A DNA stretch of 64,000 bases from an uncultured Gammaproteobacteria bacterium (GTDB lineage Bacteria; Patescibacteriota; Patescibacteriia; Patescibacteriales; UBA12075). Each line of letters opens with the position of its first letter. Within the stretch, counting starts at the first letter, position 1. Below are positions 48,533 through 63,621 of this stretch, piece after piece. The translations under genes and the position numbers were made by a program. Below the pieces are notes generated by a model. The model was not told where the DNA came from. It was given only the letters and a program-made list of their open reading frames with translations, and made no database searches. Where the stretch lies: assembly GCA_964459725.1 (NCBI GenBank), contig CAYWNT010000003.1, positions 47,592 through 111,591 on the forward strand. The letters run 5' to 3'.

Positions 48533-48548
48533 TTTGCTCCCGGGGTCG
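48533..48548. repeat. outermost partial copy of the tRNA-Asn 3' end (candidate original attL of the older integration)
   Basis: ttgctcccggggtcg matches 62934-62948; sequence diverges after 16 nt. Confidence 0.45.
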
Positions 48549-48787
48549 CCTGCCTGCCGGCAAGGCAGGGATTCCCTCCTATGCTCTTCGAGCTTCGGCG
48601 GGTGAACTTCTCATCACGGCCTACAAAAACAAAATAAAAACACCTCGAATGAGGTGCTTTTATATTTGCTCCCCTTAATGAACAAGTTTAGAACTATTAA
48701 TTGGAATAAAATCAATGAAAAATTAATAAAAATAAAAAGCGGATGTTGACTTTACGTCTCACCGCTTGTTTAATTTTGTTATTCTTT

Positions 48788-49219
48788 TTAATTTTGTTTT
48801 GTTGCCTGATGCCCAATGTAATAAACCCTCTCGCACTTATCACACTTCATCCTGAGAGGCGACTTTATAACATCTGCCCAAACATTAATGTCTTGGCAAA
48901 ATACAAAGCCAGTACTCCTAACTATGCCTCCCCTGCAAAATGAACATTTAAATCCATTGTCCTTAGCTTTGCTTTCTTTTGACCTCCATTTATACAAAGG
49001 GGTGGCGCCTGAATAAACATCATTCTCATTTTCAAAAACATAAAAACAATGAGATTTTGGATGATTTTTTCTAGCAATCGAAAAGGCTCCTCTTGGGCTT
49101 TTGGAATATACTTTTTCTATCACAGGTGCAGGATTTGAATGAAGTACAAAATATACATTTTTTGTTCCCCCATTGGAGAAATTGGATATTCCGCATTGTT
49201 GAAGTAATTGCGGTTTCAT
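48788..49219 (-). CDS. Cys-rich hypothetical protein within the remnant element
   Basis: 143 aa; CxxC pairs (CSFCRGG, CDKCERV). Confidence 0.4.
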   Translation of the reverse strand: MKPQLLQQCGISNFSNGGTKNVYFVLHSNPAPVIEKVYSKSPRGAFSIARKNHPKSHCFYVFENENDVYSGATPLYKWRSKESKAKDNGFKCSFCRGGIVRSTGFVFCQDINVWADVIKSPLRMKCDKCERVYYIGHQATKQN

Positions 49220-49461
49220 TATAAAACCTCCCTATTTCAATTGAAGTTAAATAGATATTATCTAAATCAGTAGAAATACTTACAATTCATTTTAATACCC
49301 TCCAGGATAAAATTTTAAACTTATATTTTTTATTGTAAAGAACAAAAAAAGTATAACATATGTTATACTTTTTGTCAAGCAAGCTCCCGGTACATTCAAC
49401 TCTGAAGTGCAACACCTGTCTTTTCATAGAATACCTCATAAGGTGTATTACTACGGATATG

Positions 49462-49809
49462 TTTAACCAAAAGCTAAAAGAATATAAAGAAAGGCAACAA
49501 GAAATAAATGATAAATTGCAGACTTTAGATGTTGCTGATGAAGACTATTATATCACCGTAAACACAGTACTATCTCTTGCTCAGCGGGCATTAGAAATAT
49601 TTGAAAGTTCTGAAGTGTCTGAAAAACGACAACTTCTCAATTTTCTACTTCGGAACCTTGAATTGAGAGGAAAAAAGTTGGAATATAAGCTAAAAGCACC
49701 GTTTGATACGGTGCTTAAAGCGAACGAGTGTTCTGATTTGCTCCCGGGGTCGGATTCGAAGGGTTCAAGCCCCAACACCATCAACAATTCACAATTCTAC
49801 TTCTTGTAA
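49462..49809 (+). pseudogene. C-terminal fragment of a large serine recombinase (truncated remnant)
   Basis: EKRQLLNFLLRNLELRGKKLEYKL / LLPGSDS parallels TKKEILSIIGSNLTLKDNILNISL / LLPGSDS at the C-terminus of the intact recombinase. It reads into the att repeat in the same frame. N-terminal catalytic and zinc-ribbon parts are missing. The annotated ATG lies inside a 28-bp perfect palindrome (49346-49373). Confidence 0.45.
49738..49760. repeat. 23-nt direct repeat of the tRNA-Asn 3' end (attL of the intact element / tRNA-proximal att of the remnant)
   Basis: ttgctcccggggtcggattcgaa identical to 62934-62956. Confidence 0.6.
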
Positions 49810-50180
49810 CCGTTCAACTATAATACATTATTCTGCTGCACTTAAACACTTCTCAGCTCGATTCTCATCACAAACCACAGATACCAAATATAAAAACACC
49901 TCGAATGAGGTGCTTTTATATTTGCTCCGCGGAATATATGAAGTTAGAACCTCTATTTGTCTAAAACAAACATGCTTTATTAAATAAATTTGAAATACTT
50001 AGAGGGGGGGGCTACCCGAAAACTTCCCTTTTTGATTTAAAATAAAATTGGCCTCTGTGAAATTTGCATCAATTTTCAGAAAATGATGTGTTTGATGTCG
50101 GTGATGTTTTTTTTAAATCATTTTAAATATTTATAAAAACCTACAAAAAAAGCGAATTATATATAATTCGCTTTTAATAA

Positions 50181-50711
50181 TCACTTCTTTAATTGAAGTA
50201 GTTTATTTGACTGAAAAAAATCTTCAATACTATTTACATTCCACCAACCTTTTAATCTTGGCTTATAAATGAAATCTTGTAGATGAAATGGTATTTTCCC
50301 TGGATTTAATTCATAGCCCTCACTATTTTCTCCTCTAATATGAACTAAATGGTCCCCTTTAAATGTTTTACCAAGGCGCAAAACAACCCTTCTAATTGCT
50401 ATATCATGTATATGAGCATTATCTGTTTCTTGAATATTGTAGTCAATTTTTGAATTCACATTTGAAACATTTGTATCATATACATCGCTTGCATTCATCA
50501 GAAGCCAGTTTAATAATCCGATATTAGATTTAAAAAACTCATAATAAGCATCTTCATACAATATAATAGCAAAATCTCTCGAAATAACAGTGTCACACCA
50601 TGAATATGCCACCCTCCAACCATTGATTCCATATAAAGCATCCCATTCTTCTTTGAAAACAATTCTCCTTTTTCCAAAATAACCTGGTCTTCTAATTGTC
50701 TCCCAACTCAT
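50181..50711 (-). CDS. hypothetical protein (cargo gene, co-transcribed with the LOG-like gene)
   Basis: 176 aa; 10-bp gap from the upstream gene; no motif recognised. Confidence 0.45.
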   Translation of the reverse strand: MSWETIRRPGYFGKRRIVFKEEWDALYGINGWRVAYSWCDTVISRDFAIILYEDAYYEFFKSNIGLLNWLLMNASDVYDTNVSNVNSKIDYNIQETDNAHIHDIAIRRVVLRLGKTFKGDHLVHIRGENSEGYELNPGKIPFHLQDFIYKPRLKGWWNVNSIEDFFQSNKLLQLKK

Positions 50712-50721
50712 TATCCACCTC

Positions 50722-51264
50722 TTATGGATTTTTTTGATTAATTAGTTTTAATATCTTTTTTACTGCATCTTCTGGGCTTGATGCTGACTCAACCTTCATT
50801 CTTTTCCTACTATCTAAATATTTTCCCACCATCATGTCAGATGAGCCCCCTGTGCCCTTTATTGCAACAATAGGAATATGAAGCTGATATGCCACCAGCA
50901 TTTCATTTAGCGTCCCAGATCCACCTGATACAGTTATTATTCCGTCACAACTATTTACTAAAACAAATTCTCTCCCTCCACCTCTTTCCATGCCACTACA
51001 GATAACAACATCAGCATATTTATTACCTCCCCAAACTTCTTTGCCCTTACCATATGTGATTCCAACAACTAGTCCGTTTTCTTCCTTGGCCCCCTTAGCT
51101 GCAGAGGTTGAAAGAGAATCAACGTCTTTTTCAGCACCATAAACAAGTATACTCCCAGTTTTAGCAACTTCTTTTCCTATATTTTCAGCAATTAATTGGT
51201 TTTTTTTTGAATTTTTGGTGTCCGCTGCTGATCCCATTACACCAATTTGTAATTTTCTTTTCAT
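50722..51264 (-). CDS. LOG/TIGR00725-family Rossmann-fold nucleotide-binding protein (nucleotide 5'-monophosphate nucleosidase-like)
   Basis: 180 aa; VSGGSGTLNEM matches the LOG PGGxGTxxE motif; N-terminal IGVMGSA. Confidence 0.65.
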   Translation of the reverse strand: MKRKLQIGVMGSAADTKNSKKNQLIAENIGKEVAKTGSILVYGAEKDVDSLSTSAAKGAKEENGLVVGITYGKGKEVWGGNKYADVVICSGMERGGGREFVLVNSCDGIITVSGGSGTLNEMLVAYQLHIPIVAIKGTGGSSDMMVGKYLDSRKRMKVESASSPEDAVKKILKLINQKNP

Positions 51265-51286
51265 TTATTATTATTATTATTATTAT
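51263..51286. repeat. (TTA)7 / (TAA)7 trinucleotide microsatellite abutting the LOG-like start codon
   Basis: ttattattattattattatta read on the plus strand; on the minus strand it gives seven in-frame TAA codons immediately before the ATG. Confidence 0.8.
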
Positions 51287-51355
51287 TAACAAAATAACTA
51301 TACATCTTTTTTAAAAAAATGTAAAGGACTAAAAAGTGGCTACAAGATTATTCTC

Positions 51356-51389
51356 AATAAAAAACCCACGAATTTTTTTATCGTGGGTT
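51356..51389 (-). terminator. rho-independent terminator between the PRTase-like and LOG-like genes
   Basis: 9-bp stem aacccacga/tcgtgggtt; U-tract on the minus strand. Confidence 0.55.
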
Positions 51390-51398
51390 ATATTAATT

Positions 51399-52412
51399 TT
51401 AGTACTCGTGACACAGATCTGACAAGTAATCCGTAACATATGAATCAAGCCTAGGAAACCTTCTAAAGCCAATATTTATAGGAATAGATATTTTTGGTTT
51501 GATATCAAGTAAATCACCTATCAAAATTTTATTTTCGTTCATGCTGTCTATCGCTCTAAATAACTCAAGCGTCCAAGATGCACAAAACCTAGAAAGCTCA
51601 ACTTGATGTTTCTCAGAAATACTTGCCCATTTATTCAAAGGAGCAAATGGCATTATATATGGCATAGAATATGTAGCCCCTTCTTTTGAGTAAAATGGAT
51701 ACAATTCTTCTCCCATCTTTAATCCAAGCACTCTTCCACAATTAGGAATAAATGGAACAAAATCGTGATCTGGCATCCAATCAATCAAGTTGTCAAATTC
51801 CTCAACCACAATAAGTTCCCCATCAAACTGAGACTTAACCTTGTCTATGGCATTTGGAAATGAAAAACCAACGACTATTGCTTCAACATCTAAATTGTTT
51901 TCATTAAATTTTTCCAAGATATTTATCAAAGTTCTTCCACTAAATATACCATCTTCCATTAAAATCAATGGCTTTCTTGCGCTACCAAAAGTCTTGTTCT
52001 TGATATTAATGATTTGATCACTAATTGATGGCGTTCCTGGCCTTGGTCCAATACCAATCACATCACCTGCTTCATTAACTAACCTGTTAATATTAAGAAC
52101 AAATCCGTTTTCATCCATTGATTCATCCATTCTGCTGATTTCAGAACAAGTGCTTATAATATCAGCATTTTTAAGCAAAGCCTGTCTTTTAAACGTTTTA
52201 CTTACAATTTTTTCTGCCAACTCCCTTGTGTTTATGGCAACCACATTTGCTTCTGGGAATGAAAGCTCTACATACTTTAAAATCTCACTTTCCAAATCAT
52301 CAAATATTTTGTCATTTGGAGATGGTGTTTTTATTCCAAATCTGTTAAATACACCTACTTTTTCTCTCACATCAAATGTCAAAATATAAGTTCGTTTATG
52401 CTTTTTCTTCAT
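51399..52412 (-). CDS. type-I phosphoribosyltransferase-domain protein with ~130-aa N-terminal extension
   Basis: 337 aa; PRPP-binding loop KPLILMEDGIFSGRTL (hhhhEDxhxSGxTh). 28-bp gap from hisS, so probably co-transcribed. Confidence 0.45.
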   Translation of the reverse strand: MKKKHKRTYILTFDVREKVGVFNRFGIKTPSPNDKIFDDLESEILKYVELSFPEANVVAINTRELAEKIVSKTFKRQALLKNADIISTCSEISRMDESMDENGFVLNINRLVNEAGDVIGIGPRPGTPSISDQIINIKNKTFGSARKPLILMEDGIFSGRTLINILEKFNENNLDVEAIVVGFSFPNAIDKVKSQFDGELIVVEEFDNLIDWMPDHDFVPFIPNCGRVLGLKMGEELYPFYSKEGATYSMPYIMPFAPLNKWASISEKHQVELSRFCASWTLELFRAIDSMNENKILIGDLLDIKPKISIPINIGFRRFPRLDSYVTDYLSDLCHEY

Positions 52413-52440
52413 TGCACTTCCTCCTATATTAGCTAAAATT

Positions 52441-53760
52441 TTATTTAATAATTCTGGTTAAGGCATCATCAAATGACATGAGAGATTGTTCTCCTGTAAC
52501 CATGTCCTTCAAGGCCACCTTATTTTGGCTTCTTTCATCCTCACCAATAATAATTACATAAGGAATCCCTTTCCTGTTGGCATAGGATAATTTTTTTGAG
52601 AATTTATCATTTTCGACATATACTTCAGTTATGACACCAGCAGATCTTAACTGTGTAGCTACTTCAAATGGGGACTGGAGATTATCATCCAATGAAACAA
52701 CCAAAACTTTTGTCAAAGAAAGTTGTTCGGCTTTAATTATGCCAGCCTCTTTCAGCTGATAAAAAAGTCTTGTTAATCCAATTGAAATACCCACTCCAGG
52801 CAATTTATTGTTCGTATAACTTTCTGCCAAGTTGTCAAATCTGCCACCAGAACAAACTGATCCAATTTTAGGGTAGTCTGTTAACAATGTTTCATAAACA
52901 GTGCCCGTATAATAATCAAGTCCTCTAGCGATAGACAAATCAATAATAAAATTATTCTCAGGAACATTCAAATTACGAATATTCTGAATAACAACAGCAA
53001 GTTCCTCTACTCCTTCAGAGAATAACTTATTTTCAATTGACAGATTCTTCAAATCGCCAATAATAGAATCATTATCTCCTTTAATGCTCAAGAACTTCAG
53101 CAGGTCATCAACACCGTCATTTGAAACGCCAAGTTCAATCAGTTCTTTGGAGACCTCTTCTTCTCCGATTTTCTCGATTTTGTCAACAACTCGAAGAATT
53201 TCAGTAGAAGAAACTTCTGTGCTTAAATTCTGAAAAAATCCATTTAGAATTTTCCTATTATTAATCCTAATGAGAAAATTTTCAAATCCCAGAGATTTAA
53301 ATGTGAAATAAATCACACTTGGAATCTCGGCGTCATGGTGAAGACTCAAAGAACCGTTTCCAATGATATCAATATCACACTGATAAAATTCCCGAAAACG
53401 TCCTCTTTGTGCACGTTCTCCTCTGTGAACTTTGCCAATGTGGCAACGTCTAAAAGGAAAGGTTAATTCAGAATAATACTGACTTACATATCTCGCCAAA
53501 GGCACAGTTAAATCAAACCTTAAGGCAAGCTCATTTTTACCCTTTTTGAATCTGTAAAGTTGCTTTTCAGTTTCGCCGCCAACTTTCGCAAGTAACACCT
53601 CTGCTTTTTCAATGTCTGGTGTGTCAATCGGAGTAAAACCGAATAACTCATAACACTCCCGAATGGTACTCATCATCTTATTAAACAATAACTGATCAGC
53701 AGGAAGTAACTCCATAAATCCAGAAGGAATTGATGGTTGAACAATGTTGTTTTTCTTCAT
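52441..53760 (-). CDS. hisS: histidyl-tRNA synthetase, full length with anticodon-binding domain
   Basis: 439 aa; class II motifs; HisRS signatures RGERAQRGRFREFYQCD, ARGLDYYTGTVYE, GGRFDNL; C-terminal anticodon-binding fold (VLVVSL...IPYVIIIGEDE). No T-box seen upstream. Confidence 0.85.
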   Translation of the reverse strand: MKKNNIVQPSIPSGFMELLPADQLLFNKMMSTIRECYELFGFTPIDTPDIEKAEVLLAKVGGETEKQLYRFKKGKNELALRFDLTVPLARYVSQYYSELTFPFRRCHIGKVHRGERAQRGRFREFYQCDIDIIGNGSLSLHHDAEIPSVIYFTFKSLGFENFLIRINNRKILNGFFQNLSTEVSSTEILRVVDKIEKIGEEEVSKELIELGVSNDGVDDLLKFLSIKGDNDSIIGDLKNLSIENKLFSEGVEELAVVIQNIRNLNVPENNFIIDLSIARGLDYYTGTVYETLLTDYPKIGSVCSGGRFDNLAESYTNNKLPGVGISIGLTRLFYQLKEAGIIKAEQLSLTKVLVVSLDDNLQSPFEVATQLRSAGVITEVYVENDKFSKKLSYANRKGIPYVIIIGEDERSQNKVALKDMVTGEQSLMSFDDALTRIIK

Positions 53761-53951
53761 AATCCTATCTCCTATTTAGATGGTTAATATTTATGCAATA
53801 TGATTATTATAACAAAATAATAATTTTAAGCAATAATTTCAAAGAACTACTAAATCCGTACACCTTAGCATAAAATTTAATAGTTGTCAATAGCAAAAAC
53901 CCGCATATAAAGACTCTTTATGTCTCCATAACAAAAACACATAAACATACT

Positions 53952-53984
53952 AAAAAATGCCTAAAATTAGGCATTTTTATTTTC
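53952..53984. terminator. weak bidirectional terminator between hisS and the nuclease gene
   Basis: aaaaaatgcctaaaattaggcattttt: 6-bp stem with flanking A-run and T-run. Confidence 0.4.
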
Positions 53985-54087
53985 TCAATCTAAGAGCTAC
54001 TCTATTTATAGTTCATCGCTATTTGACCACTTCTAAAACTACATCACACTTAATTAAAATCCATATACTGATAATATACAACTGTTA

Positions 54088-55170
54088 TTATTTCCCAGAT
54101 TTCCTTCTGTTGCACTCTTTGCATAACATTTGGCAATTTTTTTCAATTGATTTCCCTCCCTCGTGCCAAGGTGTTATGTGATCAGCTTCCATTCTTTCTA
54201 TCTCAAATTTTTCCTTACATGCTTTACAAATACCTTTTTGCTTCTCGTAAACCTTTTGCTTAACTGCATCAGTAAATGCACGAATAGAAAGATATTTTTC
54301 ATTACGGGTTAAAATGTATGGATAGATACCGCTCTTTTTTGTGACATCATCATCAAGTATTAACCTTTCTGTTTCTTCTTCAATTTCCTTTGTATTATAT
54401 TTCTCATCTTTATATGCATTATAAAGAATACCCCAATCAACACCTTTCATAAACTTTCTTTTTTTGATAAAAGTCGTATTTACCCAAGTCATTACATCTT
54501 GAAAATATCGCCATAAAGCTCCCGCATTTTGGTCGTGCTGATGGTCGGACATATATTCTTCTATTTTGTTATTAGAAATCCATTTAATCGCTGTTTCAAG
54601 ATAATCTTGACGAATTGGCGAGCCATTTAGATAATCACCTCCTGTCTGATAGGCAACGCAACCATTTTTACTAAAATATCGTTTTGCATCAGTAACCCAA
54701 GTTCCAGAATAAACAGCGTTTCGGAGTTCTTGTTCTGTTAATTTTTCACCCGCAATATTTATTGTTTTAAACCAATCTAATTTTTCACTATCTGTTCCGC
54801 TACACTGATAAACAGTGAGTTTATAATCCAAAATCTGTTCTCGTTTATCCTTTGGCAAATTATGAAAAGCCATGCCGTTGATTGAAAAATCTCCTTCGGC
54901 ATATTGGCAAATTGAAATGGTACGTTGTTGACCATCAATAATTTCAAAATTCCCATCTTCACGAACAGCCCAATACATCACATTAAGAGGAAATTTTTTT
55001 GTAATAGTATCAATAACCGCATCCCTTTGTTTGTCTTTGTAAATAAATTCTCTTTGGTAAGGAGGGCGAATATCAAGCTTACCACCATATCCAACAACAC
55101 CATCCTCAGCATTGTCTTTAAAATCCTTTATCAATTCACAAATAGTTATTTCTTTTAATTGTATTTTCAT
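54088..55170 (-). CDS. DUF262 (ParB-like nuclease superfamily) fused to C-terminal HNH endonuclease; GmrSD-like putative restriction endonuclease
   Basis: 360 aa; N-terminal RPPYQREF...IIDGQQR (DUF262 DGQQR signature); C-terminal CKACKEKF...EADHITPWHEGGKS...CQMLCKECNRRKS (HNH). Confidence 0.75.
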   Translation of the reverse strand: MKIQLKEITICELIKDFKDNAEDGVVGYGGKLDIRPPYQREFIYKDKQRDAVIDTITKKFPLNVMYWAVREDGNFEIIDGQQRTISICQYAEGDFSINGMAFHNLPKDKREQILDYKLTVYQCSGTDSEKLDWFKTINIAGEKLTEQELRNAVYSGTWVTDAKRYFSKNGCVAYQTGGDYLNGSPIRQDYLETAIKWISNNKIEEYMSDHQHDQNAGALWRYFQDVMTWVNTTFIKKRKFMKGVDWGILYNAYKDEKYNTKEIEEETERLILDDDVTKKSGIYPYILTRNEKYLSIRAFTDAVKQKVYEKQKGICKACKEKFEIERMEADHITPWHEGGKSIEKNCQMLCKECNRRKSGK

Positions 55171-55189
55171 AATAAAATCTATTAAAAAA

Positions 55190-56266
55190 CTAAAGTTTTT
55201 TATTTTTAATAAGTATTCTTTTATATATAAACTTACCAGCTACCATTGGTGCTCCCCCTTTATCGGCAAATCCTTTTATGTGATATCGATTTCCTTCATT
55301 TGCAATGTTTGCATCGGCCCTACCAACAATTTCAAACTGCTCAGGATTATGTTTATCCATAAATGTAATTGGAACACCCATTACGCCCTTATAATCAATT
55401 GGAATTTCTGCAACCTTATTCACATTTATAGCCTTGTAATTATCGTATTTCGGATATTCATCCTCGTTTCCCTTATACATTTTATAAAGAACGATATCTT
55501 CGTTGTGCTTTTCTACCTCAAGATTTGTGAACCAACATGAAGTAGAAACACGAGCTATTTTATTTCCATCGTCATCAATATGATGATATTTTTCCCAGTT
55601 ATCTGGGACAACAAAAAACATTCCAACATTAAAATTTGTATATCCCGTTCTAAACCTGTTTTTTTCGATTAATTTAAAAATTTCTTTGTAGGTTATTGCA
55701 TTTGTATTTCCTATTATTAGAAATTTTTTATTATATTCTTCTAGTTGCTCGACAAATTTACGGAACAAAGAAAATGGTGGGTTGGTTACGACAATATCCG
55801 ATTCTTTTAAAATTTTCACAGATTCCTCACTCCTAAAATCACCATCTCCTTTAAGCGGGGTTGCAACATTTTTATCATGCTTCAAAAGCCATTCAACATC
55901 CGCCATACTTACAGCACCATCATTATCAAGATCTTTAACTTCATTTATTTCAATTTTCATTGGCTCTTTTTTCTTTGCTGTTTTTAATCCTTCTACTTCG
56001 AGCAAGGAAAGTTGTCCCCCAACAACGGGCGACCCCGCATAGCTTGTGGCAATAAGTTTTTTAAGACCAAGTACATTGAAACTAGAAGCAAAATATTTAA
56101 AAAAGCTACTTTCAAACGGATCATCCGCATTGCAATAAACAGTTTTATTTTTAAATTGTTTTTTGTAATATTTTAACTCTTTTTCTATATCAGAAAGCTG
56201 AGTATAAAACTCATCCTTCTTTGCTTTATTTGCTTGTCTTAAGTTTTTATTGGAAAATTTAGGCAT
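55190..56266 (-). CDS. N6-adenine DNA methyltransferase, EcoRI-methylase-like family (call from memory)
   Basis: 358 aa; N-terminal KAKKDEFYTQ and catalytic NPPF (VVTNPPFS). 19-bp gap to the downstream nuclease gene, so operonic. Confidence 0.65.
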   Translation of the reverse strand: MPKFSNKNLRQANKAKKDEFYTQLSDIEKELKYYKKQFKNKTVYCNADDPFESSFFKYFASSFNVLGLKKLIATSYAGSPVVGGQLSLLEVEGLKTAKKKEPMKIEINEVKDLDNDGAVSMADVEWLLKHDKNVATPLKGDGDFRSEESVKILKESDIVVTNPPFSLFRKFVEQLEEYNKKFLIIGNTNAITYKEIFKLIEKNRFRTGYTNFNVGMFFVVPDNWEKYHHIDDDGNKIARVSTSCWFTNLEVEKHNEDIVLYKMYKGNEDEYPKYDNYKAINVNKVAEIPIDYKGVMGVPITFMDKHNPEQFEIVGRADANIANEGNRYHIKGFADKGGAPMVAGKFIYKRILIKNKKL

Positions 56267-56327
56267 AGTTCAACACTTCTACACCGACTGTTTGTGTTTT
56301 TGGGTATCAAAAAAGGACAGCCGAGGT

Positions 56328-56448
56328 GTTGAACCACAATAGTTCATCCCGAGGGAATCCCTAATCGTAGAACTCGACTGCCCATTCCAGCCTACGATTA
56401 GGCAAAAAATGGGCAGTTTCCGCTCAGGATATTCTATTGTGGTTCAAC
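56328..56448. other. 121-nt region of nested and interleaved perfect inverted repeats (candidate structured RNA, origin or operator)
   Basis: A gttgaaccacaatag 56328-56342 / A' 56434-56448 (15 bp); B cctaatcgtag 56360-56370 / B' 56392-56402 (11 bp); C ctgcccatt 56378-56386 / C' 56408-56416 (9 bp). Order A-B-C-B'-C'-A' is pseudoknot-compatible. Confidence 0.5.
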
Positions 56449-56583
56449 ATTTTTAATTTACCACTAAAATAATAAAAAATCAACCTTGCTACCCAGTGCT
56501 ACTCACTATATTTCAGCTTGATTTTTCGCCAAAATTAAAGTAAGATATAGGCAATATTACTATTATAATTAGATGACATTATT

Positions 56584-57741
56584 ATGAAAATTGAGCTTAT
56601 TATTGAACAATTAAAAGATTATTTCAATTCTCCAAAAACCAATTTTGAAAATTGGGATTTCTATATTAATCTATCTGAATATGTTGAATTTATTAATAAT
56701 ACGCCAGAATTAAAAGCAGAAGTAAAAAAACTTGAGAAAGAAAGAGATGAGTGTTACAAGAAATATTATCAACTAAGGAATAAATCCTGGGAAGAAATAA
56801 AAAAATCAGGAAATCAATTATTAACAATATTAGATGCAAATAAAATATCAAAGATAAAAGATAATGAGTTAATAGACGAAATAAAAGAATTAAAAGGCTT
56901 TGTTGCTGGGACGGTTTTATACGGTGAAAAAAAGCCAGTCAGTATTATAAATCGTTTACTTGACGATATAGCTGTGCATCTTGCAAATGATAAAAAAGGA
57001 AAGCTAGTTGAAAAATTTATTAATTCCAAAAACCCATCTCGATTTATATTTTCAAAAACTCTGCCTTTATTTTGTGAAATGGAACGTGATATTGAAGATA
57101 ATTTAGAAAATGAAAAATGGCATTATTGGTATATGTTGAAAGATATACCAGACATCATTAAATTGCCTCTTAACAAAAGTATTTCTATTTCTAACAAATA
57201 TAGCAATCTACCCTATGAAGAATATAAGTATTATTTTTTGTTTTTTGAAATCAAAAGAGATTTTAAAAAAAATCAAGGAAAAATTAATCAATATATGAAG
57301 CAAGATATTCTTAAATATAAAAATTATTTTCAAAGTATAAATAATTATTTGATAAAACAGCTGTTCAACCAAATAAAAGAACAAGACAAAAAATATAATT
57401 TTGAGTTCCGCGAAAATTATCTTTACTATAATGAACGAAAAGGAGATAAAAAATTTCTTGATGAAGAACAACATGCACACACACTCAGATTTATTATTGT
57501 TAACCGAGAAAAACCTTTGATTTTATATAATGATATTAAAAATTATCTACATGATTCAAAAATAAAATTAAAATTGAAAAAATCGTTTACTGAAAGCGAC
57601 AATCAATATAATATAAACAGAGCTATTGTGCGCCATTGCGACACGATAGAAAAATATATTAAAAAAGATTTTCCAGAACTAGAAAATAATAAAATTTTTG
57701 AACAGATACCGAATCAAGGAATTGAATTTTTGTTAGACTGA
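56584..57741 (+). CDS. hypothetical Lys/Asn-rich protein (element gene); terminator hairpin at 57771-57793
   Basis: 385 aa; extremely AT-rich codons; no motif recognised. Confidence 0.5.
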   Translation: MKIELIIEQLKDYFNSPKTNFENWDFYINLSEYVEFINNTPELKAEVKKLEKERDECYKKYYQLRNKSWEEIKKSGNQLLTILDANKISKIKDNELIDEIKELKGFVAGTVLYGEKKPVSIINRLLDDIAVHLANDKKGKLVEKFINSKNPSRFIFSKTLPLFCEMERDIEDNLENEKWHYWYMLKDIPDIIKLPLNKSISISNKYSNLPYEEYKYYFLFFEIKRDFKKNQGKINQYMKQDILKYKNYFQSINNYLIKQLFNQIKEQDKKYNFEFRENYLYYNERKGDKKFLDEEQHAHTLRFIIVNREKPLILYNDIKNYLHDSKIKLKLKKSFTESDNQYNINRAIVRHCDTIEKYIKKDFPELENNKIFEQIPNQGIEFLLD

Positions 57742-57907
57742 TTTTTTTTAAAATAATTTTCGTCTGTTAATAGCCATTCGTGGCTATTTTTTTATTTTAA
57801 AATAAGTTAAAAATATTTTACAACCGCTAATTATCGCTAATGTGACATTGTGAAATAATTATAATAGATGTTCGAACAAACAAATTAATAAACTAATAAA
57901 AATTACT

Positions 57908-58159
57908 ATGACAAAAATATTAAATGAAAGAGATTTTTTCAAAACAGCCGATCTGAGCCTAGCATCCAGCCTTCGTTATTATGGCTATATAGTCGAGGCT
58001 ATTGATAGGCAAAACCCTAAAAAAGTAGAATTTTTATTCATTCGTGATAATGACTTAGATAAGATAATCCATCAATTTTGGTCACGTTTGCTAACTGTCG
58101 AACCAGTTGCTTATTTCGGTTTCATTAAGGAATTAAAAAATAGATTATACTCAGAATAA
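57908..58159 (+). CDS. hypothetical small protein
   Basis: 83 aa. Confidence 0.45.
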   Translation: MTKILNERDFFKTADLSLASSLRYYGYIVEAIDRQNPKKVEFLFIRDNDLDKIIHQFWSRLLTVEPVAYFGFIKELKNRLYSE

Positions 58160-58161
58160 AT

Positions 58162-58323
58162 ATGAACCTTTCAGATCGGCAAATTACCAAATTTCAAGAA
58201 TTATATTATAACCGCTTTGGTGAAAAAATAAACCGAGAAGTGGCTCTTGAGCAAGGGATAAAACTTGTACGGTTAATGGAGTTGGTATTTAAACCTGCAA
58301 ATGATTCTGAAATTAAGGAATAA
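58162..58323 (+). CDS. possible unannotated small ORF (53 aa), tightly packed between neighbours
   Basis: Own translation: MNLSDRQITKFQELYYNRFGEKINREVALEQGIKLVRLMELVFKPANDSEIKE. ATG 2 nt after the upstream stop; the next gene starts 25 nt after its stop. Confidence 0.35.
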   Translation: MNLSDRQITKFQELYYNRFGEKINREVALEQGIKLVRLMELVFKPANDSEIKE

Positions 58324-58348
58324 TATCAAATAAATTACAATTAATATT

Positions 58349-59809
58349 ATGAACAATAACATTGAAAAATTACCGCCACAAAATATTGAAGCCGAACAAT
58401 CATTGCTCGGAAGTTTAATAATGGATAATAACGCAATAAGCAAAATCGGTGAATTATCAGAAAAAGACTTTTATAATGATAATCACAAAAAAATATTCTC
58501 TTGCATGAAAGAAATGAGCGATTGCGATATTATTAGTTTAACGGATAGATTGATGGAAAAAGATCTATTATCGAAAATTGGCGGGCGGGCGTATTTAGCT
58601 AAATTAACTAATTGCGTTATAACATCCACTAATGTAAGCAAACACGCTGAAATTATCCGAAAAAAGGCTATATTAAGACGATTAAACCATGTTGCTAACG
58701 AAATCAACGATCTAAGCTACAAAGAAGACGAGAATATAGACAAACTTCTAGATCAGGCTGAAAAAAAATTAAATAGGATTACTAATTCTTACACTGTAAA
58801 AAAAGCTCATTTCAAAATAGTTAAAGGCGATGAATTAATTGACATGAAAGAGCTTAAAACTCCTTACATTGTCGACAAGCTAATTCCTGAAGGAGCTATC
58901 ACTGCTATCACTGCCGATAGCGGACGTGGCAAATCATTGATAACATTAATACTCGCCTATCATATAGCTGGTGGTAAAAAATTGTTTGATATATTCGAAG
59001 TTAAACAAAATAGAGTATTAATCATCGATCAAGAGATGGATAACGATGTTATTTTGGGCAGATATAAGGCAGTAGTAAAAGAAAAAAATATTCCTATTGA
59101 TTTTATATATAACCAATTCTTGCAAATTGACTACGATAAAGATTATAAGTGGTTGATAAAAACTATTAAGGAGAAAGGATATAAAGTAGTGGTGTTTGAT
59201 ACATTAACCAACCTGCACTCTAAAAGCGAAAACTCCGCCGATGAAATGAAAGAAGTAAACAAGAAACTATTAAACTTAATTCATGAAACAGGCGTTTCAA
59301 TTATTTATCTACATCATCACAAGAAAAGACAACAAGGTGAAAATTTCAGTCAATCATCTTCAAGAGGAAGCACGGAAATAATTGCCAAGGTTGCCTCTCA
59401 TATTTTAATAGACAGTAAACACTGGATAGAGGATGAAATTACACATCTTAAATTAACTCTACAACAAGAAAAAGCTAGACGACCTGACAGGATAAGCAAA
59501 ATCGGCGTAAAAGTATTTTATGATCCATACTTAAAAGAGACTCATTGGGAGTATTTAGGAGAAATCAATGACAAAGAACAAAAAGCAGAAGAAGCAAAAA
59601 AGTTTATTCTTAACACCCTAGAATCAACCACATGGCTATCAATAGCTGAATTTAAAGAAAAAATGAACGATGGTAATTTAAAAATTGGAGAAAATAACTT
59701 AAGAGATGCTTGCCGAGATTTAGTCAAAGAAAAGAAAATCATAGAAGAATTAGGAAAAAACATCGAAAAAGAACAAAAACGAGCTAAATACTATAATTTA
59801 AATGAATAA
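58349..59809 (+). CDS. replicative-helicase-like protein: DnaB N-terminal domain fused to RecA-like/AAA_25 ATPase (plasmid/phage RepA-type)
   Basis: 486 aa; NIEAEQSLLGSLIMDNNAISKI...DFYNDNHKKIF (DnaB_N); Walker A TADSGRGKS; Walker B VVVFDTL. Confidence 0.7.
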   Translation: MNNNIEKLPPQNIEAEQSLLGSLIMDNNAISKIGELSEKDFYNDNHKKIFSCMKEMSDCDIISLTDRLMEKDLLSKIGGRAYLAKLTNCVITSTNVSKHAEIIRKKAILRRLNHVANEINDLSYKEDENIDKLLDQAEKKLNRITNSYTVKKAHFKIVKGDELIDMKELKTPYIVDKLIPEGAITAITADSGRGKSLITLILAYHIAGGKKLFDIFEVKQNRVLIIDQEMDNDVILGRYKAVVKEKNIPIDFIYNQFLQIDYDKDYKWLIKTIKEKGYKVVVFDTLTNLHSKSENSADEMKEVNKKLLNLIHETGVSIIYLHHHKKRQQGENFSQSSSRGSTEIIAKVASHILIDSKHWIEDEITHLKLTLQQEKARRPDRISKIGVKVFYDPYLKETHWEYLGEINDKEQKAEEAKKFILNTLESTTWLSIAEFKEKMNDGNLKIGENNLRDACRDLVKEKKIIEELGKNIEKEQKRAKYYNLNE

Positions 59810-59887
59810 AATTATCTTATTACTTGTTAATACTATATATAGTTTAATAATTAACAAGATAAATGGGTATACCCCATAAGTTAACTT

Positions 59888-60265
59888 ATGAAGTGTAAAT
59901 ATATCAAATCAAACAAAAAACGGTGTGATTCTAATGCGTTAAACGGAGATAAATACTGTTTTTGGCATTCAGACAATATAAATGATGCTGAAAAACAAAA
60001 AGCCAGAATAACTGGTGGTAAATCAAATATATCAAAAATAACCAACCCTCTCCCTCCTATGGAGATAAACGAGCCTGATGATGTTGTGAATTTACTAGCT
60101 GACACAATCGAGCGTGTACGAAATGGAGAAATGGACGTAAAAATTGCAAACTGCCTTGGCTTTCTTTCAAGTCATCTCATTAAAGCACTAGAACTGTCGA
60201 ATTTAAAAAATAAGGTCGAGGCAATAGAAAAAGTGTTTTATGAAAGAAAAATAAATATTAGATAA
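59888..60265 (+). CDS. hypothetical protein with N-terminal zinc-finger-like Cys cluster
   Basis: 125 aa; CKYIKSNKKRCDS...CFWH. Confidence 0.45.
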   Translation: MKCKYIKSNKKRCDSNALNGDKYCFWHSDNINDAEKQKARITGGKSNISKITNPLPPMEINEPDDVVNLLADTIERVRNGEMDVKIANCLGFLSSHLIKALELSNLKNKVEAIEKVFYERKINIR

Positions 60266-60267
60266 AT

Positions 60268-61158
60268 ATGAAAATTGATATTAAAAAACTATCAAAAGGA
60301 TCAAGTGCTCAAGATAAAGCAAGACTATTGTTTGCCAACCGTAATTTGCGAGGAGATACTGAACGCAAAGAAAACCTAATAGCACCCTCCGAAGAAGAGG
60401 CTATAATTGAAGATGCTCGAAAAAATAACCAAATAGCCGAGATAAATAAATACAACCAGCTATATAATTTGAATATATTTTCAATGCTTGATTTACAAGC
60501 TACGTTTTCTAATTTTCAGCTTGCAAAAAGTAGATTAGATATAGTTATTGTTGGATCAATGGTTAAAGGCGAAATGGATGATATAATTGGAGAAATATTC
60601 TACCATCTTGAAAATCAAAAAAAGAAAGAAGGTAAAAGTGATAATGAAGTAAATGCGTATTTTAATAAATTGGAACAAATAGAAAAGAAATACAAAAATA
60701 AATCACTAATTCAATCTTTTGATCATTTTGACCCGCCATTGATTAATCCAGATGAAGACAGAGAAAAATATAAAAAAACGATACAGCCAAATAAGTATAT
60801 TCAAATTAGATTTATGGATGTAGTGGATAGTATTAAAGATTATGAGAAACAGCTATATCTTGTTGACTATTTTAACAGGCAAGCAGGATTTAACTTATTA
60901 AGCGACAAACAAATAAAATCAATTGAAAGATATAAAGTTGAGATAGATGAATTTATCAATCTAAGAGGTGTAGAATTATCATTAAACATATATAAAAAAT
61001 TTGCCGAAAAAAAACTAATGCGAACTACCGATTTGCACAAACCATTGTTTCTTAAGACACTTAACAACCTCAAACAAGCCATCGAGCTAACTAATGACGA
61101 AATAAAATCCGTCGAACTTGAAGCCAAGGAATATATTAATCGAGAAATTCCTTTTTAA
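60268..61158 (+). CDS. hypothetical protein (element gene)
   Basis: 296 aa; 2-nt gap from the upstream gene; no motif recognised. Confidence 0.5.
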   Translation: MKIDIKKLSKGSSAQDKARLLFANRNLRGDTERKENLIAPSEEEAIIEDARKNNQIAEINKYNQLYNLNIFSMLDLQATFSNFQLAKSRLDIVIVGSMVKGEMDDIIGEIFYHLENQKKKEGKSDNEVNAYFNKLEQIEKKYKNKSLIQSFDHFDPPLINPDEDREKYKKTIQPNKYIQIRFMDVVDSIKDYEKQLYLVDYFNRQAGFNLLSDKQIKSIERYKVEIDEFINLRGVELSLNIYKKFAEKKLMRTTDLHKPLFLKTLNNLKQAIELTNDEIKSVELEAKEYINREIPF

Positions 61159-61352
61159 TTTAATCTATTAGCCTGTATATTGAAATTATTACTGTTTATG
61201 CTATACTATAAGTGCTTACCTAATACAATAAATACGCAAAGGTTTTTTAATTGTCGCCTGAAATGGGCGGTTCTACCGATAATTTTTTACCTTTGTGTAG
61301 ATGTATTGGGTAAGCTAGAACCGTCCTTTTTTGTTTACTAAATTATAATTAT

Positions 61353-62975
61353 ATGGAAACAAATAACAAAAAAACCAAATATTTCCTTTACGCTAGAAAA
61401 TCTAGTGAATCTGAGGACAGGCAAATGGCATCAATTGATTCTCAAATAAAAGAACTAGAAACTATAGCCAAACAAAATAATCTTGATGTAATAGAAACTT
61501 TCTCAGAATCTATGTCAGCCAAATCACCTGGGAGACCAGTTTTTAATGAAATGATAAGTAGAATTAAAAAAGGAGAGGCTAATGGTGTTATTTGTTGGAA
61601 ATTAAATAGGCTAGCTAGAAATCCAATAGACGGGGGAGAAATAAGTTGGATGATTCAACAAGGCATCATTGAGCATATCCAAACCTTTGGCAGAAGTTAC
61701 TACCCTACTGATAACGTAATAGTTATGGCAGTAGAACTGGGCATGGCAAATCAATTTATTAGAGATTTAAGTGTGGACACCAAAAGAGGGCTTAAAAGCA
61801 AAGCTGAAAGAGGCTGGTATCCAACATTCTCAGCTATGGGCTATATGCATAATCCATATAAATACAAAGGAGAAAAAGAAATAATCAAAGACCCCGAAAG
61901 GTTTTATTTAGTCAGGAAAATGTTTGATCTAATGCTAACTGGAATACATACTCCTCCTCAAATATTGAAAACAGCTACAGAAGAATGGGGTCTCCGAAAT
62001 AAGAAAGGAGGAAAAATTGCTAATAGCACTATTTATAGAATATTTAGTGACCCTTTTTACTATGGAGAGTTTGAATGCCCAAAAGGAAGTGGTAATTGGT
62101 ATAGGGGCAAACATGAGCCGATGATAACCAGAAAAGAATTTGATAACATTCAATTTTTACTTGGGAGAAAATGCAAACCCAGGGCTAAAACAAAACAATT
62201 CCCTTTTACAGGAATGATTAGATGTGGTGAATGTGGTGCTATGATAACCGCAGAAGATAAAGTAAAAAGACAAAAAAATGGAAATGTACATTATTATACA
62301 TATTACAGATGCACTAAACGTAAAGACCCGAATTGCACTCAAAAAACTATTAGAAAAGAATTACTTGAAGAACAAATAGTAAATGAGCTTGAAACAATAG
62401 AAATTCCAAGAGAATTTACAGAATGGGCATTTGACGTTATTAAAACTGAAAACAAAAAAAATTATTCTAGTAGAAATAATATTATTTCAAATCAACAGAA
62501 GCTCTATGATGAATGCTTAAGGAAACTTGATGGACTTATAGACATGAGAGCTAACAATGAGATAAACGCTGATGATTTCAACAGGAAAAAAACTGAATTA
62601 ACAAAAGAAAAAGAAAGAATACAGAAACTTCTTAAAGACTCTGATAAAAATAATGACAACTGGATTGAATCAGCTGAGAAGTTATTTTTGTTTGCTGAAA
62701 ACGCTAAGACTACTTTTCAGGATGGAGATATAAATACAAAGAAAGAGATACTATCCATTATCGGTTCGAACCTCACCCTAAAAGATAATATACTCAATAT
62801 TTCATTGAACAAAACTCTAGAACTCATAAAAAACATCTCTCCAGAGGTAAATACCATTCAAAAACGGTTAGAACCTCTCAATATGCCCGAAGATAAGCAA
62901 AAACTCTGGGCAAATTATGCCCAGAGTCCTATGTTGCTCCCGGGGTCGGATTCGAACCGACGACCAATTGATTAA
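61353..62975 (+). CDS. large serine recombinase (integrase) of the element
   Basis: 540 aa; resolvase-type catalytic domain (YARKSSESEDRQMASIDSQ...WKLNRLARN), recombinase domain, zinc ribbon (CGECGAMITAED...YYRCTKRKDPNC), coiled-coil C-terminus; the 3' end overlaps the tRNA-Asn 3' end. Confidence 0.85.
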   Translation: METNNKKTKYFLYARKSSESEDRQMASIDSQIKELETIAKQNNLDVIETFSESMSAKSPGRPVFNEMISRIKKGEANGVICWKLNRLARNPIDGGEISWMIQQGIIEHIQTFGRSYYPTDNVIVMAVELGMANQFIRDLSVDTKRGLKSKAERGWYPTFSAMGYMHNPYKYKGEKEIIKDPERFYLVRKMFDLMLTGIHTPPQILKTATEEWGLRNKKGGKIANSTIYRIFSDPFYYGEFECPKGSGNWYRGKHEPMITRKEFDNIQFLLGRKCKPRAKTKQFPFTGMIRCGECGAMITAEDKVKRQKNGNVHYYTYYRCTKRKDPNCTQKTIRKELLEEQIVNELETIEIPREFTEWAFDVIKTENKKNYSSRNNIISNQQKLYDECLRKLDGLIDMRANNEINADDFNRKKTELTKEKERIQKLLKDSDKNNDNWIESAEKLFLFAENAKTTFQDGDINTKKEILSIIGSNLTLKDNILNISLNKTLELIKNISPEVNTIQKRLEPLNMPEDKQKLWANYAQSPMLLPGSDSNRRPID

Positions 62976-63008
62976 CAGTCAACTGCGCTACCGCTGCGCT
63001 ACCCGGGA
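62937..63008 (-). tRNA. tRNA-Asn (anticodon GUU)
   Basis: Manual fold: acceptor UCCCGGG/CCCGGGA, D-stem GCGC/GCGC, anticodon stem GUUGA/UCAAU, loop CUGUUAA, T-arm GUCGG-UUCGAAU-CCGAC, discriminator G; CCA not encoded. Confidence 0.85.
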
Positions 63009-63070
63009 ATAATCAAATTATATCAAAAAAATAAACTGCGTTCCGACTGAAACGTCGGAGCCAAATAATA

Positions 63071-63334
63071 TCATGGCTTCATTTTAATGAAACCATCTTT
63101 TATTATTTTTTCAATATAATCTCTTCTTTTCAACTTTTTTAATTTTCTTTCAATAGTACGAGCTTCTAATAAATTCTCATACTCTTGATGAAAAACTAAA
63201 CTAATCTCCCCAAATCTTTTTGTTGAAGGAGTATATCCATTTTTGTGATGTTGAAATCTTTTTTCTAAATCTATTGTACTCCCAATGTAATATCTTCCAT
63301 CACGTATGCTTTTTAAAATATAAACATAAGGCAT
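63071..63334 (-). CDS. GIY-YIG domain nuclease, small stand-alone (UPF0213/YhbQ-like)
   Basis: 87 aa; YVYILKSIRDGRYYIGSTIDLEKRFQHH matches GIY...YIG...R...H. Confidence 0.8.
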   Translation of the reverse strand: MPYVYILKSIRDGRYYIGSTIDLEKRFQHHKNGYTPSTKRFGEISLVFHQEYENLLEARTIERKLKKLKRRDYIEKIIKDGFIKMKP

Positions 63335-63621
63335 AAGTTTTAATATGCGTTCCGACGTTTCAGTCGGAATCCCGACCTTGCGTCGGGGCTACCCAATAAT
63401 CCGCCAGCTGGCGGATTATTTTCAAAAAAAACAATGCCTGAAAAGACTTTCATAGCATCTATAATAATATTACCAAATACTCAAAATATGTCAATAAGTT
63501 ATTCGCTTCACGAAGTCCGTGCTATCCCGAGTGCTCGGGAGAACACATCCAAATTTTTAATCATTGTTTATCCTTTCGACTTTATAGACTTTCCTGCTTG
63601 TCGACAGACAGGCGACTCAAT

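Follow-up and report, generated by a model that had tools for sequence, protein, structure and literature searches.

A family of large serine recombinases that reads into tRNA 3′ ends in Patescibacteria, with a candidate attachment site inside the recombinase gene

How could a large serine recombinase (LSR) come to use a tRNA gene as its target? This question is raised by a 64,000-nt stretch of contig CAYWNT010000003.1 (GenBank assembly GCA_964459725.1; hereafter the window), in which an LSR gene runs into the 3′ end of tRNA-Asn at the right border of an insert of ~13 kb, with the remains of a second element to the left. Reading into a tRNA 3′ end is a family-wide behaviour of this recombinase, a point that the initial annotation of this DNA, made from the letters alone, had missed. 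On balance, and with little more than even confidence, we favour the reading that the locus is an array of LSR-mobilised integrative elements at tRNA-Asn, in which the element's own attachment site (attP) lies in the end of the recombinase gene and a hairpin motif, X, is the left junction (attL).

The only tRNA in the window, according to both ARAGORN and Rfam, is an intact tRNA-Asn(GTT) on the minus strand (62936..63008; Rfam tRNA model, 72.2 bits), and its trailer is CAA, not CCA. The LSR gene lies on the plus strand (61353..62975, 540 aa) and its 3′ end overlaps that of the tRNA by 40 nt, the last 13 codons (LLPGSDSNRRPID) being antisense to the tRNA. All three LSR domains were found by hidden Markov model searches: the catalytic Resolvase domain (PF00239, E=4.5e-19), Recombinase (PF07508, E=1e-8) and Zn_ribbon_recom (PF13408, E=6.3e-14). 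Both the tRNA fold and the open reading frame (ORF) that enters it had been proposed in the initial annotation and are confirmed here. The catalytic-serine motif YARKSS..Q is near-invariant in an alignment of 23 homologues, the PHROG match is phrog_95 (integrase), and a sequence match to a solved structure (3g13) covers the catalytic domain only. Directly 3′ of the tRNA, and thus antisense within the LSR ORF, is a terminator-like hairpin followed by a T-run (62900..62930, minus strand); comparable hairpins with compensatory changes exist at the homologous loci L084, L087 and L097, and in other registers at L098 and L099. The flanking rpoD and the named LSR homologues belong to Patescibacteria (Parcubacteria, Falkowbacteria).

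How widespread is this arrangement? When 8000 candidates were scored, 5644 relatives of the recombinase were obtained at E<=1e-10, a set broad enough to take in serine recombinases in general, and the top 120 (58-71% identical) were taken as the close homologues. In at least 57 of these 120, a conserved LL is closely followed by D(S/F)N or GSN, the signature of an antisense T-loop (the T-loop in antisense, GAT TCG AAC, encodes DSN), ~46 stop within four residues of the LL, and 14 have a conserved tail of the form ..(D/E)x(V/F/I)RT.. instead. At L084, L085/86 and L087 the recombinase reads into tRNA-Asn in the same register as in the window, with unrelated neighbours at these loci (PSP1/AA-kinase, arginyl-tRNA synthetase, rpoD-dnaG), and in a distant relative (L083) it reads into tRNA-Gln. 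The family is large and apparently undescribed. Full-text searches of the literature gave no publication that describes Patescibacteria serine recombinases at tRNA genes, and a metagenome scan with the recombinase returned a single weak relative. Scans of IMG/VR by the predicted junction and site patterns gave nothing relevant, L092 and L100 being unrelated.

Where, then, does the insert end? Besides the overlap of LSR and tRNA, it is bounded by two direct repeats, TTGCTCC (49922 and 62934) and a 23-nt tRNA-derived repeat (49738 and 62934). Evidence on the left junction comes from X, a 36-nt hairpin motif present exactly at 48637-48672 (X1, the left copy) and 49893-49928 (X2, the right copy), inside a ~96-nt homologous block. 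The initial annotation had rightly seen this motif in both units, with coordinates 3-4 nt off. In X2 (49893..49987, plus strand), the proposed attL of the intact element, a hairpin (49897-49912) is followed by TTGCTCC (49922-49928), 14 nt of spacer (N14) and GTTAGAACC (49943-49951). X1 (48637..48749, plus strand), the proposed attL of an older element, relic A, has the same hairpin, TTGCTCC (48666-48672), N14 and TTTAGAAC (48687-48694). In frame from TTG CTC, X2 encodes LLRGIYEVRTSICLKQTCFIK and a stop (49922-49987) and X1 encodes LLPLMNKFRTINWNKINEKLIKIKSGC and a stop (48666-48749), two peptides that we read as putative severed recombinase tails. Both resemble the xRT tails of intact homologues (P0059 LLRRLDDVRTCIMSRLAG, P0089 LPLLEAFRTINWQSL, P0021 LLPLVNKLRTLKW). 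A profile of 14 xRT tails, run against 1304 six-frame segments of the window, gave X1 as the top hit (E=1.2e-6), followed by X2 (E=0.95), and among other loci it matched L099 and L095/L096.

The identity between copies changes abruptly at TTGCTCC. X1 and X2 agree at 41 of 42 positions up to the right end of this heptamer and at 18 of 31 positions beyond it (manual count), and the tRNA-type copies show the reverse, the tRNA-derived 23 nt on the right being identical and the recombinase sequence on the left diverged. These opposite patterns therefore make TTGCTCC the junction in all five copies, and GCTC is the sole stretch that is invariant over all loci. At L099 (the locus of P0059), where there is no tRNA, the recombinase ORF continues unbroken through TTGCTCC-GCCGGCTGGACGAC-GTTAGAACC, and this TTGCTCC-N14-GTTAGAACC site looks like an intact attP. 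The hairpin, the sequence T(T/G)GCTC(C/G)-N14-(G/T)TTAGA(A/G)C and an xRT-like tail in frame are common to X1, X2, L098 and L095/L096. In L098 the X-like motif is ~11 kb upstream of the recombinase, the order is that of the window (X, minus-strand cargo, core, recombinase) and homology with the window reaches the G-run past the tail. In L095 (13990-14066, minus strand; also in L096) the hairpin precedes TTGCTCG, N14, TTTAGAAC and an FRT-type tail; this junction is 2.4 kb downstream of tRNA-Asn, at an rpoD-tRNA-Asn locus that has no recombinase gene. Beyond the L095 junction lies a Bsp6I/methylase/OLD island. In the window the combined pattern occurs only at X1 and X2 (0 expected by shuffling). 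Among 100 fetched loci, the only match beyond the X/attP-type sites is in L100, which we judged to be due to chance, this contig having itself been retrieved by a near-identical pattern.

The geometry of the sites provides a further line of evidence. On the tRNA side, the proposed attR core and attB-type half-site (62934..62958, plus strand) read TTGCTCC-N9-ATTCGAACC. To the right of the core, the spacing is N14 in five of five X/attP-type sites and N9 in seven of seven tRNA sites. According to Rutherford et al., the 9-bp motif of the zinc-ribbon domain covers positions 16-24 of an attP half-site and 11-19 of an attB half-site, a shift of 5 bp (PMC3783163), and the difference between N14 and N9 is exactly this published shift. 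Given the drop in identity at TTGCTCC, the severed tail downstream and the attP half-site geometry, X is more likely attL than the internal shared feature that it was first taken for. As a separate observation, GGTTAGAACC (62866-62875), which encodes the conserved recombinase residues R/G-L-E-P, is almost identical to the 9-mer of the distal att motif and is located ~80 nt upstream of the T-loop; the same motif is present in L084, L087, L097 and L098, and it may be a coincidence or an extra binding site.

In the mechanism that we propose, the recombinase ORF would contain attP in its last ~20 codons, and the chromosomal site (attB) would comprise the tRNA-Asn 3′ tip and the terminator just downstream. 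Strand exchange would occur inside GCTC, at about tRNA positions 71-74, with an identity core of 4-7 nt, not 23. The 23-nt repeat, originally considered to be the recombination core, is probably not that core, and the oddity of a serine recombinase using a long identity segment disappears. The tRNA body would stay chromosomal, and the element would supply the last few nucleotides (discriminator region and trailer). Occupied sites read (T/C/A)TGCTCC and the unoccupied tRNA-Asn of a relative (L095/L096) encodes its CCA (TGGCTCC), a difference that is consistent with an element-derived discriminator and trailer. After integration the recombinase would end, at attR, in the antisense-tRNA tail, and its original ..VRT.. 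tail would be stranded ~13 kb away at attL, behind a terminator hairpin. The terminator hairpin on the opposite strand of the recombinase ORF would then serve the tRNA. This mechanism predicts the circle junction ...GAGTCCTATG-TTGCTCC-GCGGAATATATGAAGTTAGAACC and the empty site ...GGTGCTTTTATAT-TTGCTCC-CGGGGTCGGATTCGAACCGACG, and on this view the element may still be mobile today.

What remains of the older element, relic A, lies between X1 and the second copy of the tRNA 3′ end. As first reported, the 23 nt TTGCTCCCGGGGTCGGATTCGAA occur exactly twice in the window (49738-49760 and 62934-62956; shuffles expect 0). The left copy (fragment #2, 49738..49760, plus strand) is exact, ends in the T-loop and lacks a tRNA body, and it is the proposed right junction of relic A. 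Just to its left (49447..49737, plus strand) is a sequence in which the initial annotation had recognised the C-terminus of a recombinase. A profile of the 120 homologues matched the frame at 49357-49806 over profile positions 404-496 (E=2.5e-10) with no use of the LLPGSDS tail; pairwise BLASTP against the intact LSR C-terminus by itself gave 25% identity (E=2e-5). The profile match is independent of the repeat-encoded residues and identifies the segment as a true relic, the C-terminus of a divergent LSR, which supports the earlier idea of a decayed related element left of the intact one. Relic A (~48666-49744) would come from another subfamily and predate the intact element, its remains being a severed tail, one ORF and ~95 recombinase codons. 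The ORF encodes a cysteine-rich protein of 143 aa with no assigned function (48788..49219, minus strand). Ahead of it is a near-consensus promoter-like site (49350-49378, minus strand; TTGACA-17-TATACT with an upstream TG), and it may still be expressed. Tandem duplication of a single element via unequal exchange was rejected, as the recombinase C-termini are just 25% identical.

A third, shorter tRNA copy had been reported at the far left and is indeed present, with 14-15 nt at 48534-48548. Its sequence TGCTCCCGGGGTCG (48535-48548; 0.73 matches expected at <=3 mismatches) belongs to fragment #1 (48534..48574, plus strand), which consists of 15 nt (48534-48548), a 21-nt GC-rich palindrome (48549-48569) and GATTC, and which adjoins a hairpin and T-run beside the presumed native chromosomal flank. 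The palindrome, cctgcctgccggcaaggcagg, splits the fragment, and its deletion would join GTCG to GATTC as in the tRNA; we infer that it is an insertion. More short GC-rich hairpins are seen in AT-rich intergenic DNA (for example 63401-63414 and 63528-63541). Fragments #1 and #2 both end in the T-loop, with a spacer of 60-130 nt to the next X, and at two homologous loci, L097 and L098, 24-25 nt of a bodyless tRNA 3′ end come after the recombinase, with unrelated DNA beyond. Such T-loop-cut fragments may have been left behind by other elements whose crossover lies in the T-loop; with a length close to that of one attB half-site, they may instead be pseudo-attB sites. A crossover in the T-loop as the reaction of this recombinase was considered, as three tRNA fragments end there, and was dropped on the evidence of the X tails and of the N14/N9 spacing. 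Right after the 23-nt repeat, 49761-49785 (GGGTTCAAGCCCCAACACCATCAA) loosely resembles the sense-strand T-arm and acceptor end of another tRNA, a reading that neither ARAGORN nor Rfam supports.

What does the element carry? On the array reading, the intact element would span ~49922-62940, with the core TTGCTCC at both ends (49922 and 62934), in support of the ~13-kb LSR element at the tRNA-Asn 3′ end that had been described. Its core module (56584..61341, plus strand) encodes a 385-aa protein of unknown function, a DUF5659 protein, a 53-aa ORF, a DnaB-N/AAA_25 helicase and further ORFs of 125, 296 and 53 aa; four ORFs of the core are unannotated. The DUF5659 protein and a 53-aa ORF have counterparts by sequence in L087, and DUF5659 (Pfam) with similar-sized small ORFs is also found in L098 and L099. 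Between attL and the core is a slot of minus-strand cargo genes. One block (54088..56266) consists of a type II restriction enzyme (GmrSD_N and HNH) and an EcoRI-like methyltransferase; the other (50181..53760) comprises a 176-aa ORF of unknown function and genes for a SLOG/LOG-like protein, a PRTase-like protein and histidyl-tRNA synthetase (HisRS, hisS). The equivalent slot of homologous elements holds restriction-modification systems, OLD-type nucleases and further genes of defence type (such as KAP NTPase and Schlafen/AlbA_2), besides proteases and other unrelated genes. The AT-richness first attributed to the right ~9 kb is real and narrower than described: GC is lowest (0.25-0.31) at 56-61 kb, 0.31-0.34 at 50-56 kb and mostly 0.35-0.42 in the backbone. 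No capsid, terminase, tail, relaxase, coupling-protein or secretion-system domain was detected in the window ORFs with Pfam and PHROG, and the element looks like a plasmid-like integrative element, not a phage-like one. The gap from which the restriction-modification genes and the core module diverge contains a 130-nt imperfect palindrome (56323-56452; folding z-scores ~-8 on both strands), with no equivalent in L085, L087, L097 or L098; it may act as an origin or in regulation.

The hisS cluster had escaped the description of this unit as intact, which missed that a housekeeping-type gene lies inside it. HisRS itself is ordinary, Clostridia and Patescibacteria enzymes being about equally similar (57-65% identity). 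The neighbours hisS-SLOG-PRTase (50722-53760 in the window) recur in a Moranbacteria contig (L043, 3360-8221) beside tRNA-His, with 69% identity for the SLOG/LOG-like protein and 26% (E=8e-16) for the PRTase-like protein, which suggests a conserved functional module. The L043 cluster adjoins an ORF that, on sequence alone, we read as HisG-like (ATP-phosphoribosyltransferase). Codon usage and GC at third codon positions of the hisS block are between those of the backbone and of the element core. No att-like sequence of the tRNA-fragment or X type was found at 53.7-54.1 kb or 56.2-56.6 kb. By the logic of the att sites hisS falls inside the inserted DNA, with no other att-like site between it and the core, and the block is probably cargo of the element.

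Several points weigh against the array reading as we have set it out. An empty site, a circular junction and an excised-form ORF were all looked for and none was found. All contigs of the same population are occupied, and the closest relatives (rpoD <=79%, hisS <=75% identical) are too distant for an empty-site comparison; rpoD-tRNA-Asn synteny is kept in L089 and L095, the latter with a different island and an X-type relic. The match of the X2 tail (E=0.95) is not significant alone, and the LSR half-site rule holds for one half-site, the left half-sites having no obvious dyad symmetry by eye. The array reading also leaves unexplained the T-loop-cut fragments and spacers outside X1 and X2 and the bodyless tRNA fragments behind the L097 and L098 recombinases. 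These fragments are what the geometry of the initial annotation accounts for more simply, and 24-25 nt of tRNA followed by unrelated DNA is the expected look of its attP or of a tandem junction. In that geometry the element spans 49761-62956, attP contains the 23-nt tRNA copy, the crossover lies inside it (possibly in the T-loop) and X is a fossil scar, with ...GGTCGGATTCGAA-GGGTTCAAGCC as the circle junction and ...GTTCTGATTTGCTCCCGGGGTCGGATTCGAA-CCGACGACC as the empty site. It fits both tRNA copies, the exact one of 23 nt and the short one of 15 nt, two events suffice, and the ancestral site is a natural one with a native terminator abutting the tRNA. However, its attP would hold an attB-type half-site and be attR-like, and should not recombine with attB under LSR directionality (PMC3783163). 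The sequences that follow the tRNA fragments have nothing in common in four cases, a non-functional fossil is not expected to stay identical at 41 of 42 positions when the recombinase C-termini are 25% identical, and the X motifs of L095/L096 and L098 have no tRNA fragment next to them. We consider this geometry unlikely. Neither of the excised-form ORFs that the two models predict had an exact match in the collection searched, an outcome that favours neither model.

A housekeeping-type hisS is also unexpected in a mobile element, and its intermediate codon usage likewise counts against the array reading. In a second rival reading the locus is an immobile fossil island, the hisS block being chromosomal DNA that a later rearrangement moved between the att remnants, and a functional element, if there is one, would be confined to ~54-63 kb of the window. 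The ordinary HisRS, similar to Clostridia and Patescibacteria enzymes alike, the recurrence of hisS-SLOG-PRTase in a chromosomal-looking Moranbacteria contig, a codon usage closer to the backbone than that of the core genes and the presence of the element in every contig of the population all fit such an island. Against it, no att-like site separates hisS from the restriction gene and none is present at 56.3-56.6 kb, the att-site logic makes all DNA from the native flank at 48.5 kb to the tRNA inserted, and L098 holds cargo in the same slot. We judge a fossil island to be improbable. A third rival is a prophage or a conjugative element, in favour of which the LSR falls into a family of phage integrases (phrog_95) and the helicase into phage DnaB-like families; given that no ORF has a capsid, terminase, tail, relaxase or secretion-system domain, and that a profile scan of 2.9 million viral contigs in IMG/VR gave only one distant, unrelated relative, the family being nearly absent there, we hold either to be very improbable. 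The array reading is the one that we retain. In its fullest form, with attP in the recombinase's own C-terminal codons across a very large Patescibacteria family, a tail swap acting as state-dependent control of direction, and hisS possibly captured, it is a tentative proposal that we think more doubtful than sound.

How does this compare with known systems? For an attachment site within an integrase ORF, the closest parallel in concept would be the SSV1-type (fusellovirus) tyrosine integrases of archaeal viruses, whose int gene contains attP, whose target is a tRNA gene and whose ORF is split upon integration. These are archaeal tyrosine recombinases whose gene is split into two large parts, whereas here ~20 terminal codons would be swapped and the enzyme would stay essentially full length. 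Islander/TIGER-class tyrosine islands are alike in having an integrase beside a tRNA whose function is kept, tandem arrays, tRNA-fragment scars and defence cargo, but they use the other recombinase superfamily and an identity block of tens of nt, versus the 4-7 nt proposed here. Phage-type LSRs (Listeria A118/LI, phiC31, Bxb1, SPbeta) share the Resolvase/Recombinase/zinc-ribbon architecture, a short identity core and (here for one half-site pair) a distal motif displaced by 5 bp in attB relative to attP; unlike them, the LSR described here targets a tRNA 3′ tip, its attP would overlap its own 3′ codons and its carrier is not a phage. The actinomycete integrative and conjugative elements of pSAM2 type (~10-17 kb) combine a replication module and an integrase and reside in a tRNA gene (PMC2440964); the present element is similarly small, modular and tRNA-resident, but those elements have tyrosine integrases and FtsK-like transfer genes, and no transfer gene is recognisable here. 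For serine integrases, the initial annotation had called a tRNA target unusual, in agreement with Mageeney et al. (2020), who stated that use of a t(m)RNA gene had not previously been reported and listed 14 candidates among 297, in need of proof (PMC7192596). A tRNA-Met site has been predicted for the serine recombinase of the Paracoccus phage Pami6 (PMC6536676). Like the present case, the TIGER candidates and Pami6 pair a serine recombinase with a predicted tRNA target; they differ in being isolated, unverified and from Proteobacteria and other groups, whereas here the property is shared across a large family in Patescibacteria and the site architecture is defined.

Between tRNA-Asn and rpoD we also noted an ORF for an 87-aa GIY-YIG nuclease (63071-63334), flanked by perfectly complementary 19-nt inverted repeats (63041-63059 and 63351-63369), each of which is part of a GC-rich hairpin. 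GIY-YIG ORFs adjoin tRNA-Asn in L087 and L095 as well, and the ORF with its repeats looks like a small mobile cassette.

If true, systematic use of tRNA genes by a family of hundreds to thousands of members would revise the view that serine integrases avoid them. A tail swap, if it occurs, would be a natural case of a recombinase ORF rewritten by its own reaction: the free and integrated enzymes would differ in their tails (..VRT.. versus an antisense-tRNA peptide), which would possibly provide a built-in control of direction. With a conserved, short and predictable attB, these recombinases are candidate integrases for genome engineering and possible handles for the genetics of Patescibacteria, for which tools are currently lacking. 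Finally, if it is confirmed that the cargo includes an essential aminoacyl-tRNA synthetase, the mobile element would have an unusual means of stabilising itself, as its loss would be lethal if the cell's hisS had been captured.

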